From Escherichia coli (lineage in GTDB: Bacteria; Pseudomonadota; Gammaproteobacteria; Enterobacterales; Enterobacteriaceae), in the NCBI RefSeq assembly GCF_003334315.1, contig NZ_QOWR01000075.1: a DNA stretch of 15,366 bases; one strand, 5' to 3'. Shown one piece after another: positions 1 to 6,610 of the stretch. Position 1 is the first letter of the stretch, and each line of letters opens with the position of its first letter. Made by a program: the position numbers and the translations under genes. The notes under the pieces were generated by a model. The model was not told the DNA's origin. It saw only the letters and a list, made by a program, of their open reading frames with translations, and did no database searches.

Positions 1-105
1 ATTATATCGAATGTGATTACAATCGGTGGCGGCGGCACAGTTGGTGTGGCGGCCTCAGTCCGGAACAATTTGAAAACAAGAACCTCGCTTAGGCCTGTGT
101 CCATA

Positions 106-483
106 TTACGTGGGTAGGATCAGATCAGGAACAGCTTTAACAGTAGCTTCTTGTTGTGTCTTGGCTTCTTGTCTAGCTTCTTCTTGTGGAATATCTACCA
201 CTTGATAGACATTAGAACTTCCTGGTCGTGCATCTTTTATAATTAACCCCATTTCGAGCAATTTCTTAACCCTTTCCTCTGCTGCTCTTGGTGTTATGCC
301 AAAAACATCGCCTATCTTAGCGTAAGAGGGAAATGCACGATCAAACCCTTTCAGATAGCAGTAAAGATTTTTAGCACTATCTGTAAATTTATGCCCGTTT
401 ACTTGGCTTATTTTTAGAATCCACATAGGAACTTTTACAAATTGTTCTTCATTAATCATTAAAAATCTCCTTGATGTAATCAC
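106..483 (-). CDS. HTH_36-like winged-helix DNA-binding protein, 125 aa (putative replication-initiator-like or regulatory protein of the element)
   Basis: ORF MITSRRFLMINEEQFVKVPMWILK...; the central segment SAKNLYCYLKGFDRAFPSYAKIGDVFGITPRAAEERVKKLLEMGLI has the pattern I associate with the HTH_36 family found in phage/plasmid Rep-like proteins. Strong RBS: the minus strand reads AAGGAGA about 7 nt before the ATG. Last gene of a tightly packed three-gene operon. Confidence 0.55.
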   Translation of the reverse strand: MITSRRFLMINEEQFVKVPMWILKISQVNGHKFTDSAKNLYCYLKGFDRAFPSYAKIGDVFGITPRAAEERVKKLLEMGLIIKDARPGSSNVYQVVDIPQEEARQEAKTQQEATVKAVPDLILPT

Positions 484-512
484 GCTCTATGGCGCTACTA
501 TGGTGATAAAAA

Positions 513-683
513 TCACTTGCTTTTATTTGAGAGTGTTTCAGCCTCTCTTTTCAACATATCAAGAATGTAATCTGTGACAGTGATACGTCTACTTCTGGCT
601 TCTTTAAATAACACCTGAAATACTTCATCAGGAATATGAAAGCAAGTGCGTGGTTGTCTTTTCTTTTCTGTAGTTTCGCTCAT
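513..683 (-). CDS. Small ribbon-helix-helix-like (CopG/Arc-type) protein, 56 aa; absent from the supplied ORF track (below length cutoff)
   Basis: Hand translation of the minus strand: MSETTEKKRQPRTCFHIPDEVFQVLFKEARSRRITVTDYILDMLKREAETLSNKSK, stop TGA (complement at 513-515). The pattern basic N-terminus, beta-strand (TCFHIPDEV), helix (FQVLFKEARSRR), helix (ITVTDYILDMLK) is RHH-like. Strong RBS AAGGAG 6 nt upstream; 19-nt gap to the upstream gene and 29-nt gap to the downstream gene. Confidence 0.35.
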   Translation of the reverse strand: MSETTEKKRQPRTCFHIPDEVFQVLFKEARSRRITVTDYILDMLKREAETLSNKSK

Positions 684-702
684 AGTTTTCTCCTTCTATT
701 CT

Positions 703-891
703 TTACTCTGTTTCAGATTCTTTTTCATTTTTTCTTAATTCATCAATAATCTTGAGTGCTTCATTGAAGCAAGCTGCTCGCTCTGGATAACCTCGACTCC
801 TTGCCATATTACGATTCATTACTATTTGGTGGCGTGTAAGCTCACCTTTTTTAAATGCCGCGACAACGTGTTCCGATGTGAACCATTTCAT
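703..891 (-). CDS. Hypothetical small protein, 62 aa; first gene of the three-gene operon
   Basis: ORF MKWFTSEHVVAAFKKGELTRHQIVMNRNMARSRGYPERAACFNEALKIIDELRKNEKESETE with a strong RBS (minus strand TAAGGAGTTTTTT then ATG). I do not recognise a family. Confidence 0.4.
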   Translation of the reverse strand: MKWFTSEHVVAAFKKGELTRHQIVMNRNMARSRGYPERAACFNEALKIIDELRKNEKESETE

Positions 892-1122
892 AAAAAACTC
901 CTTATTCAGTTAAAAGAAAAACACCTTGCAAGCCTGACGGCTTCAAAGTGCATTGATTTTGATTATTTAGAGAAGAATGTTTTTCTGTCCCTCTAATACC
1001 TATTATTACATATAAAGAAACATTTGTCAATACCTTTTCACAAAAAATCTGATCTTTTTCATGTACTTACATTTTTTCTTAGCAATTCGTGCTCTTCTGT
1101 GTAGTGCTATTCTTCCTTATTG

Positions 1123-1145
1123 TCTAAAACGCTCTAAAACGCGTT
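1123..1145. repeat. Tandem 10-bp direct repeat tctaaaacgc x2 running into the palindrome AACGCGTT
   Basis: Seen directly: tctaaaacgc at 1123-1132 and 1133-1142, followed by a degenerate third unit (gttctaacga). Lies in the non-coding region upstream of the minus-strand operon. Confidence 0.4.
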
Positions 1146-1461
1146 CTAACGAGGTTTTGATAAAAGCAATACATTCCCTTATGTAATGGCTGTTTAGCTC
1201 GCCAGAGGCTTATTTAAGGGGCTTATTTTGTATTTGTTAGGTATATGAAAAGGTGATGGTAGATATAAGATAGAGAGTCACTTTATAAAACGCTCTGTAA
1301 AGCCCTGTAGTGAGTTTATATATGTAGGCAATGCGTTTCCATTCCCTACCCTGCTTAATGCTGTTAGAGAAGCATTTAGACCCCTTATTTTTAATTACCT
1401 AAAGTATCCTCTATACATTCCTGTTATGAAACACCTCTGAATCCTTCATAAAACACATTAT

Positions 1462-1517
1462 GACGCAAAGAACACTTTTCTAAGGTGATTCCCTTCCTGA
1501 ATGCTGTTTCTTGCGTC
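1462..1517. repeat. Imperfect inverted repeat, 13-nt arms (gacgcaaagaaca ... tgtttcttgcgtc), 30-nt spacer
   Basis: Seen directly; 11 of 13 positions are complementary. Possible operator or RNA hairpin. Confidence 0.4.
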
Positions 1518-1560
1518 AAAGAGCTACACAGAGCTTATAAAGCTATTATTAATAATAAAG

Positions 1561-1620
1561 TAGACAAAGTAAGTAAGATAAGTAAGTAAGATAACTAAGA
1601 TAGATAAGATTAATAAGATC
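1561..1620. repeat. Degenerate AT-rich short tandem repeat (aagtaag / ataagat units)
   Basis: Seen directly: aagtaagataagtaagtaagataactaagatagataagattaataagatc. Confidence 0.6.
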
Positions 1621-1630
1621 AGAATTCTCT

Positions 1631-1660
1631 TTCGGTGTCGCCTCTGGCTTTTCCACCGAA
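1631..1660. other. Hairpin-forming inverted repeat ttcggtg-N16-caccgaa
   Basis: Seen directly: 7-bp perfect arms with a T-rich loop (tcgcctctggcttttc), located just before the first 42-bp direct repeat. Confidence 0.35.
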
Positions 1661-1663
1661 AAC

Positions 1664-1828
1664 AATTACACAACTACAGAGAATAACGAGAGTTATTAAA
1701 TGTAGAAAGTGGAATTGTATTGAGGCTTAGTGAAATTACACGAGGAAAGCAGAGTGTAATTGAGCTTTAGCCGCTCTCTCTTCGAGTAATTACACAACTA
1801 CAGAGAATAACAGAGTTATTAAATGTAG
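1664..1828. repeat. Pair of 41/42-bp direct repeats (aattacacaactacagagaataac(g)agagttattaaatgtag) about 124 bp apart
   Basis: Seen directly: copy 1 at 1664-1705, copy 2 at 1788-1828, differing by a single g indel. Each contains the short palindrome aataac...gttatt and is followed by similar sequence (gaaagtggaatt / gagggtaatt). Confidence 0.7.
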
Positions 1829-1917
1829 GAGGGTAATTAAGAGTTAGAGAGAGTTAACACATAAGCAATCAGTATGATTGGTTAGGTGATTACTCTTCTG
1901 CGCACAGCGCAATAGTA

Positions 1918-1960
1918 TTTCTTCGTGGGCGTTACCGCCAACGATAGTTACACGAAGAAA
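1918..1960. other. Strong stem-loop: 10-bp perfect inverted repeat tttcttcgtg / cacgaagaaa enclosing a nested ggcg-ttac-cgcc hairpin, within a locally GC-richer segment (about 1860-2075); candidate structured RNA or protein-binding site
   Basis: Seen directly. The 75-codon minus-strand ORF over this segment has no obvious RBS or protein-like composition, so I favour a structural element over a CDS. Confidence 0.4.
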
Positions 1961-2128
1961 GTAACGCTTTGCTTTCGGTGTGAGCGGAACGGGCCAGCCA
2001 CGAAGCCCAAAGGTAGCGGAGTAAGGCTGCTTGCCAGAGAGTGAAGCTAACGCCGGAAGGCAAAAGATCATATAAATAAATATATAATATTATAATTTAA
2101 TAAGTAATTTAATAAATGATCTAATAGG

Positions 2129-2262
2129 TAACAGAATTCTGTGGGGGTGTCTAACAGTTTTCTGTGGGGGTGTCTAACAGAATTCTGTTAGGGTGGGGTA
2201 ACAGAATTTTGTTAGGGTAAAAATCTCTTTAAAAGTTAAGATTAACAGAATTCTGTGGGGGG
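2129..2262. repeat. Repeat family A: palindrome (t)AACAGAATTCTGT(T) followed by G-runs (gtggggg); direct repeat ctgtgggggtgtctaacag x2
   Basis: Seen directly: copies starting near 2129, 2176, 2199 (degenerate, aattttgtt) and 2243, with a fifth at 2538. ACAGAATTCTGT is a perfect 12-bp palindrome, a likely dimeric DNA-binding-protein site. Confidence 0.7.
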
Positions 2263-2325
2263 TAGCTCACAGTGACCTACCCCCTAGTTCACTATGACCT
2301 ACCCCCCTAGGTCACAGTGACCTAT
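2263..2325. repeat. Iteron cluster 1 (family B): three roughly 21-bp units tag(c/t)tcac(a/t)(g/a)tgacctacccc; the third is the perfect palindrome AGGTCACAGTGACCT
   Basis: Seen directly: 2263-2284, 2285-2307 and 2307-2325; the palindrome is at 2309-2323. Confidence 0.7.
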
Positions 2326-2349
2326 ATAGTATAAAGAATATTATTTATA

Positions 2350-2377
2350 TTATTTAATTATAGTATTTAATTATAGT
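2350..2377. repeat. AT-rich 13-bp tandem repeat (atttaattatagt x2) in a roughly 50-bp A+T tract; candidate DNA-unwinding element
   Basis: Seen directly, lying between iteron families B and C. Iterons next to an AT-rich tract is the classical origin layout. Confidence 0.45.
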
Positions 2378-2385
2378 ATTGGTGG

Positions 2386-2483
2386 AACTCATTTCCTAGG
2401 TAGGTAGGAACTAATTTCCTAAGTAGGTAGGAAACCACTTCCTAGGTTACTTCCTAAATAGATCGGAAATCATTTCCTAGGTG
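2386..2483. repeat. Repeat family C: (a/c)tttcctagg(taggtagga) units at roughly 22-bp spacing (4-5 copies); contains the palindrome CCTAGG
   Basis: Seen directly: tttcctagg at 2392, tttcctaag at 2414, cttcctagg at 2438, cttcctaaa at 2451, tttcctagg at 2473. Confidence 0.6.
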
Positions 2484-2498
2484 TTATTTATACTTATC

Positions 2499-2535
2499 GG
2501 GTATCAGTTTTGATAGGGGTATCAGACTTGATAGG
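2499..2535. repeat. Repeat family D: gggtatcag(tt/ac)ttgatag x2 in tandem, 19-bp period
   Basis: Seen directly at 2499-2516 and 2517/2518-2535. Confidence 0.6.
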
Positions 2536-2556
2536 GGTAACAGAATTCTGTGGGGG

Positions 2557-2618
2557 TAGTTCACTATGACCTACCCCTAGTTCACTGTGAGCTACCCCTA
2601 GTTCACTGTGAGCTACCG
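2557..2618. repeat. Iteron cluster 2 (family B): three head-to-tail 21-bp units tagttcac(t)(a/g)tga(c/g)ctacc(cc)
   Basis: Seen directly: 2557-2577, 2578-2598 and 2599-2618, with exact 21-bp periodicity (two helical turns), as expected for Rep-binding iterons. Confidence 0.75.
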
Positions 2619-2712
2619 TTACATCCAATCATCTGTCGATGTAACATATCGTTACTACCAACTTTCTTACAAAGAGCATTTCAGATAGCTGAATGTAACC
2701 TCTCGTTACATC
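2617..2712. repeat. Palindrome-rich block: gttacatc-N12-gatgtaac, gtaac-atatc-gttac, and cgttacatcc repeated (2617 and 2703)
   Basis: Seen directly. Confidence 0.5.
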
Positions 2713-2729
2713 CATTTGTCACATAGCAC

Positions 2730-3210
2730 TCTGTGTAATGCCTTTCTATGTGTGTGCCATAATCCCCCTATATTCCCTGTGTAAATCATAGAATAATGCT
2801 CTCTATTCCCTGTGTAATTCCCTACTAAAAATCAATGAAAAAGTAGCTTAAAGTTGCAATTCTTACTTTCTTCACTTTTACATCACTTTCGCAAAGCCTT
2901 GTGTAATGCGGCTTACAGAGCACCATCAGAAATTGTTGGCTAAAAATTATTCTGCTTGTTTCTGAACGAGTTTTCTCGTTTGTGCAAATTTTAAAATTTA
3001 TTTTGTTTTTACAGCCTTATTTCGTGTAATGCGTGGCATAGCAAGCCCTTTTCTTGTGTTGTCAAGACATTTGGCAACGTTCAAACATCTGTTTAGAAAT
3101 GCCAAATTGTTGATCTAACAAATAAACCTGTATAAACAGAACACCATTTAATCTATTCCCCTGTGTATCCATTAGGCATACCAAATGAATACAGCTAAAT
3201 CGTGTAATAT
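2730..3210. repeat. Dispersed motif (c)tgtgtaat(g) recurring about 7 times, including the direct repeat tattccctgtgtaa x2 (2770-2818)
   Basis: Seen directly near 2733, 2779, 2811, 2901, 3026, 3161 (variant tgtgtatcc) and 3203. The region is non-coding and leads up to the recombinase gene. Confidence 0.45.
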
Positions 3211-3262
3211 TCCGTACCCATAAGGCTTGAAACAGACCAAATGAATACGGTATACTCATTTG
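3169..3262. promoter_or_regulatory. Putative res/hix-like recombinase binding region: duplicated motif cat(t/a)aggc..accaaatgaatac(a/g)g plus the palindrome caaatga-N11-tcatttg
   Basis: Seen directly: copy 1 at 3169-3194, copy 2 at 3217-3250, palindrome at 3238-3262 with the palindromic core gtatac. The location immediately 5' of a resolvase-family gene is where res sites sit in Tn3-family and plasmid resolution systems. Confidence 0.4.
3227..3256 (+). promoter_or_regulatory. Putative sigma70 promoter of the recombinase gene (-35 TTGAAA, 18-bp spacer, -10 TATACT)
   Basis: -35 at 3227-3232, -10 at 3251-3256, about 45 nt upstream of the ATG at 3302. The -10 lies inside the palindrome, which would suggest autoregulation. 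Sequence-pattern inference only. Confidence 0.35.
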
Positions 3263-3301
3263 CATTTAAGTAGTGCCAAATCGACACATTAAGAGGATTT
3301 T

Positions 3302-3841
3302 ATGAGCAATATCGGTTATAAGCGTGTGAGCACTGTAGATCAGAACACTGATCGCCAGCTTGCAGGAGTAACTCTCGATAAAGTCTTTGAAGATAAGCTG
3401 TCTGGTAAAGACACTAACCGCCCAGGCTTACAAGCGTGTTTAGCCTATCTGAGAGAAGGCGACACCTTACACGTGCACTCTCTCGACCGTTTAGGACGTA
3501 ACACCTTAGACATCCTTGCTTTAGTTGAACAACTTAATAATCGAGGTGTAATTGTTCGATTTCACAAAGAAGGAATCATTGCAGACATTACAAGCGCGAT
3601 GGGAAAGATGATGCTTACGATGTTGTCGGCAGTTGCAACGTGTGAACGTGAACTGATGTTAGAACGTAAACGAGAAGCGCAAGCCGTCAATCCTACAAAA
3701 CGTGGTAATGGAAAAGCAGTGGATCGAGAAGGTATAAAGAAAGCCCTTTCTGATGGCCTGTCAGTGCGTAAAACCGCCGAGAGCTTTAATGTTGCTCCTT
3801 CAACGGTGCAACGTATCAAGAAGGAAGAAGAGGAGGCGTAA
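3302..3841 (+). CDS. Small serine recombinase (resolvase/invertase family), 179 aa
   Basis: N-terminal GYKRVSTVDQ is the catalytic-serine motif of serine recombinases. Conserved blocks FEDKLSG, RPGL, LDRLGR and SAVATCERELMLER resemble the Tn3 TnpR, Gin and Hin layout. A C-terminal HTH is present (LSVRKTAESFNVAPSTVQRIKK). RBS AAGAGGA lies 5 nt upstream. Not identical to the Pin or Gin sequences I recall. Confidence 0.85.
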   Translation: MSNIGYKRVSTVDQNTDRQLAGVTLDKVFEDKLSGKDTNRPGLQACLAYLREGDTLHVHSLDRLGRNTLDILALVEQLNNRGVIVRFHKEGIIADITSAMGKMMLTMLSAVATCERELMLERKREAQAVNPTKRGNGKAVDREGIKKALSDGLSVRKTAESFNVAPSTVQRIKKEEEEA

Positions 3842-3850
3842 TGCCTCCTT
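3829..3850 (+). terminator. Possible hairpin at the recombinase stop (ggaggcg-taa-tgcctcc)
   Basis: 6-bp GC stem spanning the stop codon, followed by ttgatattt. Weak T-tract, so low confidence. Confidence 0.25.
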
Positions 3851-4077
3851 GATATTTGAGAATTGTCGCTGCGTGGACCTGACGGCGCTGATCTTCTCGT
3901 TAAGCGATGATCACGTATGCGCCGATTTCAGAGAAAAAGACAGTAACTGAACTCACTATGAAGGCTAAACGTATCTTTACACTTGATGAAAACGTTCAAA
4001 AAACAACCTAACCCCAAAATTCAACAAATTGCAACACATTGTTTTTAAAAGAAAATTAAATCTACATCAAATATTGG

Positions 4078-4106
4078 TTGACGTAGATTGAGGTGAATAG
4101 TAGACT
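4078..4106 (+). promoter_or_regulatory. Putative promoter for the small hydrophobic ORF (-35 TTGACG, 17-bp spacer, -10 TAGACT)
   Basis: Pattern match only; would give a leader of about 70 nt before the ATG at 4183. Confidence 0.25.
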
Positions 4107-4182
4107 ATTAGGGTAAATTACCACCCTTGTAACATCATTTAATGCATGTTCTAATCTTCCTATCGTAAAACCGGAGGAAGTT

Positions 4183-4341
4183 ATGCATTTACTTTCAAAA
4201 CATCTTCACACTATTCACTTTCTCGTTATTGATGTATTCGTTGTGGCTATTAGTTACCGCATTTGCATCGCTTCCAGTGAAGAGATGGACGCTGTTGCAA
4301 TTATTGCTCAAGCAATGGCGATATTAACTAAACGACTTTAA
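4183..4341 (+). CDS. Small hydrophobic protein, 52 aa (candidate small membrane protein or toxin-like peptide); absent from the ORF track
   Basis: Hand translation: MHLLSKHLHTIHFLVIDVFVVAISYRICIASSEEMDAVAIIAQAMAILTKRL, stop TAA at 4339-4341. Strong RBS GGAGGAAG 5-6 nt upstream. A roughly 20-residue hydrophobic stretch is consistent with one transmembrane helix. Confidence 0.35.
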   Translation: MHLLSKHLHTIHFLVIDVFVVAISYRICIASSEEMDAVAIIAQAMAILTKRL

Positions 4342-4354
4342 TAATTTCACTATC

Positions 4355-4398
4355 AGGCGCATAAACACATCTTTGATCGCTGGATGTGTTATGCGCCT
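4355..4398. terminator. Long near-perfect inverted repeat (aggcgcataaacacatc - N11 - gatgtgttatgcgcct) between the two convergent small ORFs; candidate bidirectional terminator or operator
   Basis: Seen directly: arms at 4355-4371 and 4383-4398, 16 of 17 positions paired with one bulged A. The position between convergent ORFs fits a terminator, though flanking T-tracts are weak. Confidence 0.45.
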
Positions 4399-4407
4399 AC
4401 TGGTGAT

Positions 4408-4560
4408 TCAATCCTTAAGCCATTTCAACTCACTAAGGAGTTTTCTTTCTTCGTTCTCTCGTTGCTTTCGCTCTAGCCAGGCTTTTCCCTCTGGCGTAGA
4501 CAGGAACTTACGAGCGTGAATCTTGCGGTTATTACGTTTTATAGCTGCAATGTTTTTCAT
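4408..4560 (-). CDS. Small basic protein, 50 aa, hypothetical; absent from the ORF track
   Basis: Hand translation of the minus strand: MKNIAAIKRNNRKIHARKFLSTPEGKAWLERKQRENEERKLLSELKWLKD, stop TGA (complement at 4408-4410). A possible RBS (AGAGG) lies upstream. I do not recognise a family. Confidence 0.3.
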   Translation of the reverse strand: MKNIAAIKRNNRKIHARKFLSTPEGKAWLERKQRENEERKLLSELKWLKD

Positions 4561-5166
4561 CGTGTTGCCTCTGTATTCATATGAAAATTAACAAGTTACA
4601 TACTACACAGGGAGACTACGCATAAAACACAATACAAGTAAAGATACATTTTCAAGACAATAGGAGCCATAAAGCGCCTTTGATGGTTATACCAAAAAAT
4701 AAGCGCCGTAGGCGTATCCACTAAAAAGGGCTTTTTCACAAAAGCTATGAAGTCTTAGCAGTTCTTCTCTTATCAGGCACCCGTTGTACTCCGGTGGACG
4801 AAACCGTGCTAGAGCTTGATTCTTTCCCGATCAAGTTAGGTTTTGAAGAGGTGGGCTTTAATCCACTATTGCACTTAAAACTCTTCCCATCATTTAGCCT
4901 GTTTATCCTCTGCAACGTCTCACGACGTGTAGCATCATTGGACACCGCGCCAGGTGTGGAACATCTTGCTAAGAGTTTTGGTAGAAGGTTTAGAGACGGT
5001 GGCACGTCTTCCAGCTTCAAAGGAACTTGTTACGAGGTTGAGCCTGGGAACTACTCGCCCATACGTGTTACACTACCAAAGCCCATAACAACGTATAGGC
5101 GTTTGTAAGTGATAACAGAAGATACAATTTCTTAGAGAAGTTAAGCTAAGTTATTGATTTTCTTGA

Positions 5167-5242
5167 TGGTGCCGATAATAGGAGTCGAACCTACGACCTT
5201 CGCATTACGAATGCGCTGCTCTACCAACTGAGCTATATCGGC
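5167..5242 (-). tRNA. thrW: tRNA-Thr (anticodon CGU), thrW-like
   Basis: The minus strand reads GCCGATATAGCTCAGTTGGTAGAGCAGCGCATTCGTAATGCGAAGGTCGTAGGTTCGACTCCTATTATCGGCACCA: cloverleaf features, anticodon loop TTCGTAA, encoded CCA. It sits downstream of proA as in E. coli. Confidence 0.95.
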
Positions 5243-5356
5243 CCTGAAAGGACATGTTCACGAACGTGAATCACGGTGGACAAGGTTAAAACTAACCGGG
5301 CGATGCGTCAATGGCCTTGTGAATCAAATGGCTACTTTTGCATCACCCGGTTTTAT

Positions 5357-6610
5357 TTACGCACGAATGGTGTAATCACCAATGCCGATCCACTTGTAAG
5401 TGGTCAGTGCTTCCAGCCCCATTGGGCCACGCGCGTGGAGTTTTTGTGTGCTTACCGCCACTTCCGCACCCAGACCAAACTGGCCGCCGTCGGTAAAACG
5501 CGTAGAGGCGTTAACGTAAACAGCGGACGAATCCACTTCGTTAACAAAACGCTGGGCGTTGCGCATATCGCGGGTCAGGATCGCATCGGAGTGTTGTGTG
5601 CCGTGTTCACGAATATGGGCGATGGCATCGTCAAGATCGCTGACGATTTTGACGTTCAAATCTAATGACAGAAACTCATCGTCATACTCTTCGGCTTTAA
5701 CAGCAACCACCTTCGCAGGGCCTGCCTGCAACTGCGCCAGTGCAGCTGCATCTGCGTGTAATGTCACGCCGCTTTCCGCCATTTGTTTGCTTAATGCGGG
5801 CAGGAAGCTATCGGCGATGTTTTTATTCACCAGCAACGTTTCAACCGTATTACATGTGCTCGGACGCTGAGTTTTCGCGTTGACGATCACTTTTAATGCT
5901 TCAGCGATCTCTACACTTTCATCAACGTAAATATGGCATACGCCTATACCACCTGTGATCACCGGGATTGTCGACTGTTCACGGCACAGTTTATGCAAAC
6001 CAGCGCCACCACGCGGGATCAGCATGTCGATGTATTTATCCATACGCAGCATTTCACTGACCAGCGCACGGTCAGGATTATCAATCGCCTGCACGGCACC
6101 CGCCGGTAAGCCACAGGATTTCAGGGCGTCCTGAATCACCGCCACCGTTGCCGCGTTAGTGCGACAGGTTTCTTTGCCACCACGCAGGATCACCGCATTA
6201 CCGGTTTTCAGGCACAGCGAAGCGACATCAACCGTCACGTTCGGGCGCGCTTCATAAATCACGCCAATAACCCCCAGCGGTACGCGACGACGCTCAAGAC
6301 GCAGGCCGCTGTCCAGTACGCCGCCATCGATTACCTGCCCCACCGGATCGGCGAGGTTACACACCTGGCGTACATCGTCGGCAATGCCTTTCAGCCGTGC
6401 GGGCGTCAGTGCCAGACGGTCAAGCATCGCTTCGCTAAGGCCATTGGCTCGCGCGTCAGCAACATCCTGGGCGTTAGCGTTGAGGATGATTTCGCTTTGT
6501 GCTTCCAGTTCATCGGCGATTTTTTCCAGCACGCGATTTTTTTCGCGGCTGGAGAGTTGCGCTAATTTATACGAGGCTTGCTTCGCGGCAATGCCCATTT
6601 GTTCCAGCAT
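5357..6610 (-). CDS. proA: Gamma-glutamyl phosphate reductase (glutamate-5-semialdehyde dehydrogenase), 417 aa
   Basis: Full-length [40 protein letters not shown]... recognised as E. coli ProA, immediately downstream of proB (11-nt gap). Confidence 0.97.

Follow-up and report, generated by a model that had tools for sequence, protein, structure and literature searches.

What is the role of a short word that recurs on one strand of the non-coding DNA ahead of a small recombinase gene in Escherichia coli? The window analysed here, the whole of a 15,366-nucleotide stretch of contig NZ_QOWR01000075.1 (assembly GCF_003334315.1), carries the right end of an element integrated at a tRNA-Thr gene. 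A sequence-only reading had proposed that about seven same-strand copies of tgtgtaat in positions 2730-3210 form a cluster of binding sites in the lead-up to the serine recombinase gene (3302-3841). Our analyses confirm that the repetition of the word, which we define as GTGTAAT, is real and far above chance. As proposed, the cluster is non-random; what had been missed is that it forms one arm of a strand-polar array flanking a replication origin region. The single most likely reading, to which we assign a rough probability of 0.3, is that the copies are orientation-dependent recognition sites for one sequence-specific factor at the origin region.

Repetition of the GTGTAAT word

On the + strand of 2730-3210 the exact octamer TGTGTAAT occurs only three times (2732, 2811 and 2900), and the earlier count of seven is that of the pentamer GTGTA, including degenerate copies. 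GTGTAAT itself is found five times (2733, 2812, 2901, 3024 and 3202), the two additional GTGTA copies being at 2779 (GTGTAAA) and 3163 (GTGTATC, that is, GTGTA-T), and neither GTGTAAT nor GTGTA has any copy on the - strand of this interval. The restriction to a single strand and the irregular spacing noted previously both hold, with copy-to-copy distances of 46, 33, 89, 123, 139 and 39 bp. The longer repeat, TATTCCCTGTGTAA, is indeed present twice (2771-2784 and 2804-2817), and a third, looser copy of it, CTATTCCCCTGTGTA, lies at 3153-3167.

An explanation through chance or local AT-richness fails. Five copies of GTGTAAT are observed in 2730-3210 against 0.11 ± 0.34 expected, none of 5,000 dinucleotide-preserving shuffles of the interval reaching five, and the window as a whole holds 13 copies against 2.06 expected, a number matched in none of 200 shuffles. 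As a control for the post-hoc choice of motif, at least one 7-mer, whatever its sequence, attains five or more copies in 2.4% of shuffles of 2730-3210. Two classes of flank are conserved around the core, type A (TATTCCCTGTGTAAT) and type B (GTGTAATGCG), and the units shared among copies extend to 11-20 nt. The copies of this arm, to the right of the origin region, are as follows:

2733-2739, + strand: copy 1, cTGTGTAATGcc (type B, GTGTAATGC), where L003-type relatives read GTGCAAT
2768-2787, + strand: copy 2, long type-A unit CTATATTCCCTGTGTAAATC, with core GTGTAAA at 2779-2785
2801-2820, + strand: copy 3, long type-A unit CTCTATTCCCTGTGTAATTC, with core at 2812-2818
2854-2860, + strand: degenerate copy, gTTGCAAT here; GTGCAAT in 17 of 23 relatives
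2901-2907, + strand: copy 4, ccTTGTGTAATGCGGCtt (type B), within a 200-bp core block (~2775-3004)
3024-3030, + strand: copy 5, ttTCGTGTAATGCGTGGC (type B), in a subfamily-specific segment (3004-3174)
3153-3167, + strand: copy 6, type-A-like CTATTCCCCTGTGTA, with the shortened motif GTGTA-TCC
3202-3208, + strand: copy 7, atCGTGTAATatt, inside the recombinase module and flanked by two ACCAAATGAATAC repeats

The core of copy 3 is intact in 20 of 23 E. coli relatives (the first 23 tabulated) and reads RTGTAAT in all 23. At the position of copy 6, relatives that lack the recombinase module have the full GTGTAAT, and the junction of the module is ~10 nt or less downstream. Type-A-like copies are also found in other conserved non-coding DNA, at 1170-1187 (+ strand) and at 4595-4613 (- strand), the latter just upstream of a small open reading frame (ORF). 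Four further exact copies lie outside 2730-3210, at 1665-1795, and three of these are on the - strand.

Strand polarity around the origin

The two arms of the array are separated by the following region:

2060-2620, no strand assigned: replication origin region, with AT-rich tracts and several iteron families, its content mosaic between elements

Polarity was counted for the relaxed word RTGYAAT in 30 non-identical E. coli loci from several divergent lineages, including one (L178) with a different replication protein. The right arms hold 158 copies on the + strand and 2 on the - strand (expected 8.4 and 12.3), and the left arms 108 copies on the - strand and 32 on the + strand (expected ~16 each). 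In all lineages examined the strand changes at the iteron-bearing, AT-rich origin; L176, for instance, has its final - copy at 1426 and its first + copy at 1486. The word reads outward from the origin on both sides, therefore, on the + strand rightward and on the - strand leftward. The array does not extend beyond ~1 kb from the origin, and elsewhere in the element the word is present at chance level.

Position 4 of the word is restricted to T or C in the right arm, and the word remains where its surroundings have been replaced: L003-type left arms, which are unrelated in sequence to that of the window, have ATTGCAC copies, and the corresponding right arm has a mixture of GTGCAAT and GTGTAAT. 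Elements with ATTACAC on the left keep GTGTAAT at -55 (14/14) and +35 (10/14), and in 6/14 of them the GTGCAAT at -12 has decayed, into four mutated forms; the copy at 2854-2860 is decayed in these six, this window among them. Elements of the ATTGCAC type keep GTGCAAT at -12 in 9/9 cases and have GTGTAAT intact in 6/9 at -55 and 5/9 at +35. As the loci counted are not independent of one another phylogenetically, this matching between arms is suggestive only. Two E. coli lineages show an enrichment of ~4 standard deviations in k-mers that match between the arms in inverted orientation, and no enrichment of direct matches; relatives in Klebsiella and Leclercia show no inter-arm enrichment of inverted k-mers.

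L003-type loci also contain an 11-nt inter-arm complement, ATCAATCTATT / AATAGATTGAT. A second word, AATAGATT / AATCTATT, is found in L003-, L005- and L174-type loci (for example at L003 13360-13640 and 14140-14150), with three + copies at the left and centre and one - copy in the right arm, a layout like that of RTGYAAT, and with another - copy far to the left.

Independence from the recombinase and from the initiator

The framing of this DNA as a lead-up to the recombinase gene did not withstand comparison with relatives, in which the same block occurs without a recombinase or beside different serine or tyrosine recombinases. BLAST comparison shows the region to be modular. The core block of 200 bp (~2775-3004) is common to all E. 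coli element types, 3004-3174 is common to one subfamily only, and the recombinase module starts only at ~3168-3175. Block 2620-3174 is present in about 740 of 5,426 complete E. coli genomes, in many of which no recombinase adjoins it; the element of O26:H11 strain 11368, for one, has the entire motif block and no recombinase. In other E. coli elements the same slot is taken by another serine recombinase or by a small tyrosine recombinase, and in Klebsiella, Leclercia and Raoultella relatives by small tyrosine recombinases.

It follows that the copies are very improbably res accessory or crossover sites of the adjoining serine recombinase, a role that the closeness of its gene and the location of the copy at 3202 inside its module might suggest. 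The cluster occurs without a recombinase and beside unrelated ones, the copies lack dyad symmetry and are all on one strand, an inverted-repeat search gives no partner for any right-arm copy, and not one inversion between arms was seen in the 30 loci. We reject this role on account of the block's independence and the absent dyad symmetry. A better candidate for the recombinase is the inverted repeat CAAATGA-N11-TCATTTG (3238-3262) together with direct ACCAAATGAATAC copies. This palindrome overlaps a predicted promoter, TTGAAA-18-TATACT (3227-3256), and CA(T/G)ACCAAATGAATAC is directly repeated at 3177-3192 and 3233-3248; the interval 3177-3262 is, from its sequence, a probable site of binding and autoregulation of the serine recombinase. 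Another inverted repeat, TTTGGCA-N24-TGCCAAA (3069-3114), is 85% conserved over 46 nt in Klebsiella and Leclercia relatives, where it lies upstream of tyrosine recombinases, and is also present in E. coli elements without a recombinase. The slot itself (~3300-3850) holds a serine recombinase, a tyrosine recombinase of 181-205 amino acids, a Dam methylase with a tyrosine recombinase, or nothing, among L046, L048, L169-L172, L176 and L178, which suggests an exchangeable slot for multimer resolution or cargo to the right of the non-coding region.

The word is equally distinct from the iterons, as the sequence-only reading had held: its spacing is irregular, and it is unchanged where the N-terminal domain of the replication protein (Rep) and the iterons differ. 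Several unrelated iteron families, together with ACAGAATTCTGT palindromes, occupy 2129-2619 between two AT-rich tracts. At the motif there are no regular tandem repeats of 17-23 bp, the spacing there being 33-139 bp. Among L001, L002 and L003 the Rep N-terminal domains and the iterons differ and the motif copies at -55 and +35 persist; whole-protein identity of Rep between types is as low as 50% and 16%, with different N-terminal domains, and the motif is constant. Irregular spacing and the lack of co-variation with Rep led us to reject Rep iterons as the identity of the word. The origin centre has been swapped between elements jointly with the Rep N-terminal domain, and in its make-up the origin appears mosaic, assembled from specificity cassettes. 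Within Rep the N-terminal (winged-helix) half is variable and the C-terminal half conserved, a division also seen in lambdoid O proteins.

A structured domain on the left arm

The sequence-only reading overlooked that the same word forms hairpin stems in a structured domain across the origin, of which the components are:

1617-2070, + strand favoured: structured RNA-like domain of ~450 nt that holds hairpins M1-M3, conserved in Klebsiella, Leclercia and Raoultella relatives
1664-1717, + strand: hairpin M1, 5' half AATTACAC (1664-1671; GTGTAATT on the - strand) paired with GTGGAATTG (1709-1717)
1734-1761, + strand: hairpin M2, AATTACAC (1734-1741), 12-nt loop, GTGTAATT (1754-1761)
1788-1839, + strand: hairpin M3, AATTACAC (1788-1795) paired with GGTAATTA (1832-1839)

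The three 5' halves are identical (AATTACAC) and the 3' halves vary (GTGGAATTG, GTGTAATTG and GGTAATTA), so that the 5' word is more constrained than the hairpins alone require. In M2 both halves change together in Klebsiella, and the M3 helix has compensatory changes in 5/6 pairs. Folding of 1617-2070 against shuffled sequences gives -162.9 kcal/mol and z = -9.3 for the + strand, and z = -5.8 for the - strand. Covariation was assessed for the 5' domain (1634-1913), of which ten sequences from E. coli, Klebsiella, Leclercia and Raoultella were aligned, giving 56 consensus pairs; 95.4% of cells are paired, against 30-42% with slid partners, 12 pairs have two-sided (compensatory) changes against 0-3 in slid controls, and the covariation score is 0.198 against at most 0.045. 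Both G-U versus A-C counts (24 vs 5) and alifold energies (-32.3 vs -20.5) favour the + strand, and from these models we favour a + strand RNA that runs toward the origin. A search of window 1-5400 against Rfam (E <= 1) returned tRNA-Thr only and no family for the structured domain, which may be a new large non-coding RNA of the element family.

The right arm shows no RNA structure (z = -0.23 and -0.97) and its copies are without pairing partners. It does show likeness to the left arm: unit 2792-2819 matches a complete M2 module at 71% over 28 nt, and AATAATGC, the degenerate 5' half of this unit, can still form 7/8 pairs. Between type-A units and the M2 loop there is partial complementarity (7 Watson-Crick and 2 G-U of 12).

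Proposed sites for one factor and the alternatives

GTGTAAT (RTGYAAT family-wide) is a cis word, conserved within the lineage, of the non-coding origin region of an integrative, capsid-encoding, satellite-like element, and does not belong to the control region of the recombinase gene. If its copies are sites for one factor, the E. coli members of the family would share that factor, whose gene could be in the element, in a helper phage or in the host; it would organise the origin region or act directionally upon it, in replication or in origin-proximal transcription. Its mode of action may be compared with those at the octamers scattered through P4 ori/crr, at box A, a heptamer, of P1 parS, or at the C1 operators of P1, which are asymmetric and likewise dispersed. 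Enrichment of the word, its strict polarity switching at the origin, its conserved flanks and its independence from the recombinase and from Rep and iteron type are the observations in favour; from them we infer that a protein would bind the word and act at the origin region. Also in favour are the unit length of 11-20 nt, a size suited to a protein footprint, the persistence of the word in replaced surroundings, the matching between the arms and the further type-A-like copies in conserved non-coding DNA.

Several observations weigh against recognition by one factor. No candidate binder was found among the small conserved proteins of the element, which comprise only a weak ribbon-helix-helix match, absent from several members, and a 62-amino-acid protein with a confident three-helix fold (pLDDT 86) and no PDB fold match at E < 1; searches of PHROGs, NCBIfam and Pfam gave no informative result for the small proteins or for a 609-amino-acid protein. 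The copies have neither dyad symmetry nor regular spacing, and a duplex-binding protein alone does not require uniform orientation. Only the E. coli lineage has the exact word; in Klebsiella and Leclercia the sequence at homologous positions is different, and no equivalent polar word was found there. Scanning a genome contig collection with a 20-nt core pattern returned E. coli only, plus chance matches, and scanning IMG/VR with a 15-nt type-A pattern returned chance single matches plus the same element. Among close relatives the motif columns show no significant excess of conservation over their surroundings (P = 0.48). Finally, half of the polarity in this lineage is structural, because the left-arm copies here are hairpin stems.

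The structured domain offers another possible, if doubtful, account, in which the ~450-nt + strand RNA pairs its three AAUUACAC words with right-arm GUGUAAU targets or competitors, as antisense control of rightward transcription or replication. The covariation-supported domain exists and its + strand is favoured; its 5' stem word is invariant and the 3' halves variable; and the right arm is unstructured, pyrimidine-rich and on the same strand. The inter-arm enrichment of inverted k-mers in two E. coli lineages agrees with pairing, as does the complementarity that type-A units carry into the M2 loop, and wobble rules fit the arm matching, since AUUGCAC pairs with both GUGCAAU and GUGUAAU and AUUACAC with GUGUAAU only. 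However, the complementarity is just 7-9 nt and its extension into the flanks weak (P ~0.02, best of 28 pairs), and the AAUUACAC words are buried in stems and not in loops. Right-arm sites do not co-change with the altered left words of Klebsiella and Leclercia, where inter-arm enrichment is absent, and in L003-type left arms the word stands apart from any obvious hairpin. Neither RNA has a predicted promoter, and the Rep/capsid operon, with its predicted promoter at 1002-1030, is transcribed leftward and away from the sites, so that its leader does not include the targets. In its fullest form, which we regard as speculative to a like degree, an undescribed ~450-nt RNA with three identical 8-nt words (AAUUACAC) would pair with 5-7 same-strand GUGUAAU sites across the origin, constituting a multivalent, short-seed, RNA-guided switch of replication or immunity; such a switch, if true, would be related in spirit to the P4 CI RNA and of a different architecture.

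Alternatively, the right-arm copies may now be functionless, as decayed half-copies of the left hairpin modules produced by local duplication and hitchhiking, and serving at most as microhomology for recombination; this too is possible, although we doubt it. Unit 2792-2819 is still M2-like, the two type-A units are a local duplication at 33-bp spacing, conservation of the motif columns does not exceed background, Klebsiella and Leclercia homologues of the core block lack the word, and segment swaps between element types start and stop beside motif copies. Yet neutral decay should affect both halves of a stem, and seven halves of the 3' type keep GTGTA(AT) with their partners gone. The right-arm polarity of 158 to 2 across lineages with differing flanks, the restriction of position 4 to Y and the arm-matching pattern likewise argue against neutrality. 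Rather unlikely is that the word is a single-stranded DNA signal, such as a preferred priming site or protection signal, read by a machine that leaves the origin. In its favour, it is always the lagging-strand template of outward forks that carries the word, and a DnaB-type helicase tracks this strand 5' to 3'; the geometry is that of primase recognition sites, single-strand initiation (ssi) signals and correctly oriented Chi sites; the strand switch is at the origin in every lineage examined, and lack of dyad symmetry with irregular spacing is expected of one-strand signals. Moreover, the element must recruit its primase and helicase, because it encodes an O-like initiator and neither of these is recognisable. 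Against this, the 7-nt word is not known to match any E. coli signal: CTG is used by DnaG, Chi reads GCTGGTGG, the core of Ter is GTTGTAAC and known primase sites are of 3-5 nt. CTG precedes just 4/7 copies, no helper phage has been identified, and the word is absent from Klebsiella relatives with the same replication module.

Improbable, lastly, is that the word represents promoter elements, with TGTAAT as a sigma-70 -10 hexamer, or weak DnaA boxes (ATTACACA vs TTATNCACA). TGTAAT equals TATAAT at 5/6 positions, but G replaces the essential A at -11 (position 2 of the hexamer), and there is neither a consistent -35 element at 15-19 nt nor a consistent -10 element downstream; the best -35 matches are 2-4/6 at varying spacers, save at 2901 (5/6 at a 19-nt spacer). 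A promoter scan of 2700-3200 made no prediction, and sigma-70 promoters were rejected for want of usable geometry. TGTGTA is the reverse complement of the 3' part of the R2-type DnaA box, and the origin-adjacent location would be suitable; by inspection, though, AATTACACA or CATTACACA matches only 5/8 specified positions of TTATNCACA, and a spacing of 33-139 bp is unlike DnaA arrays, in which boxes are 2 bp apart. A TGT-N12-ACA site of the P2 Ogr / P4 Delta type, also considered by inspection, fits the 2900-2917 copy only, is not conserved, and was rejected.

The element and its distribution

The tRNA-Thr gene was located with Rfam at 5170-5242 (- strand) of the window, and beyond it proA, proB, phoE, crl, frsA, gpt and pepD follow in the order of E. 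coli. Intact copies of the element (L001, L002 and L003) are ~12.5 kb in length. From one end to the other they comprise a tyrosine integrase, a leftward operon, the non-coding DNA, an optional small recombinase and a conserved attR-proximal segment. Among the operon's genes are one for a major capsid protein of the lambda-E type (Pfam Phage_cap_E), tail-like genes and one for an O-like replication initiator (phrog_270/391), and the element also carries genes of decoration-protein size; no terminase, portal or repressor gene was recognised in it. The non-coding stretch is 1.7-3.0 kb long across elements and 2.4 kb in this window. Here, the initiator gene (ORF 106-483, - strand) is interrupted after ~118 codons by an IS3 end at positions 1-125, for which 100% identical counterparts exist at IS3 ends of >3,500 E. 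coli genomes. With its O-like Rep gene cut, this copy is probably replication-defective.

The family was sampled as loci L001-L003, L043-L048 and L169-L179. Segment 2620-3320 is present in 740 of 5,426 complete E. coli genomes (~14%), in up to four copies per genome, and carriers include the O26:H11 and O104:H4 outbreak lineages. The adjacent gene of 62 codons has protein relatives in Klebsiella, Leclercia, Raoultella, E. albertii and E. ruysiae. A full-text literature search found no description of the element, and this ~12.5-kb integrative element family is apparently undescribed. EcCIMP1, which uses the same tRNA-Thr site, was rejected as its identity, being a different phage-inducible chromosomal island that encodes AlpA and a primase.

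The ~800 bp proximal to attR (4410-5212) are 94-99% identical (mostly 97-99%) across all E. coli element types, even where the capsid gene is only 72% identical, and far above the rest of the element. This segment contains a 50-amino-acid ORF (4408-4560, - strand) and ~600 bp of non-coding DNA, with a type-A-like copy, TCCCTGTGTAG, on the - strand at ~4598-4608.

The element is common in E. coli, has relatives in other Enterobacteriaceae, and is non-coding over about one fifth of its length. Since no repressor gene is recognisable, its control logic must sit in the non-coding DNA or in RNA made from it, and an outward-polar word that survives mosaic replacement is a concrete and mutable handle on that logic. 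Together with the adjoining structured domain, the word makes the timing of element replication relative to a helper phage directly testable. Should the link to the structured RNA prove functional, the feature would be considerably more interesting; if the word is a relic, its value is limited to a corrected annotation.

Comparison with known systems

As a possible counterpart of a helper phage's packaging site (cos/pac) or origin, 1300-3300 was compared with 50,697 phage records and gave no meaningful match, although shared sites shorter than ~25 nt would escape such a search, and 2790-3010 returned only noise from the same records at E <= 10. No lambda or P2 cos sequence is present in the element. 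Over 1000-4200 the sole phage-database match is that of 3850-3905 (56 nt, just 3' of the recombinase gene) to Klebsiella phage ZCKP1, at 89%.

The feature resembles known origin-flanking or antisense-type repeat systems, and does so in an undescribed, common element. The res sites of Tn3/gamma-delta-type resolvases and the hix/gix sites of DNA invertases share the setting in non-coding DNA directly upstream of a small serine recombinase gene; here there are no dyad-symmetric 12-bp half-sites, the cluster exists without a recombinase, and the likely recombinase site is the palindrome at 3238-3262. Chi, FtsK-orienting polar sequences (KOPS), Ter and primase sites are alike in a polarity that switches at the origin and in lying on the lagging-strand template of outward forks, but the sequence matches none of them and their distribution is replicon-wide, whereas the array described here is confined to ~1 kb of the origin. 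The P4 CI RNA (seqA/seqB/seqC) and the P1/P7 c4 RNA (a/b sites) each combine a structured RNA, encoded in non-coding control DNA, with short same-strand repeats complementary to it, as predicted here; in our case complementarity is 7-9 nt, the words are in stems, and the targets lie outside the leader of the replication/structural operon.

Three further likenesses serve as leads. The type-I octamers of P4 ori/crr, TGTTCACC, are bound by the alpha protein, that element's own initiator; like the present word they are short, irregular and oriented around a satellite origin, apart from tandem iterons. They differ in that our word is independent of Rep type and unrelated in sequence, and no alpha-like primase-helicase is encoded. 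The asymmetric and dispersed C1 operators of P1 offer another resemblance. The box A heptamers of P1/P7 parS, ATTTCAC / GTGAAAT, are bound by the helix-turn-helix of ParB and share with our feature a GTGNAAT heptamer in several oriented copies on two arms; here N is T or C only and each arm extends over ~0.5 kb, compared with ~100 bp in all for parS. Scans with PHROGs, NCBIfam and Pfam found neither ParA nor ParB among the proteins of the element, and a ParB acting in trans is possible.

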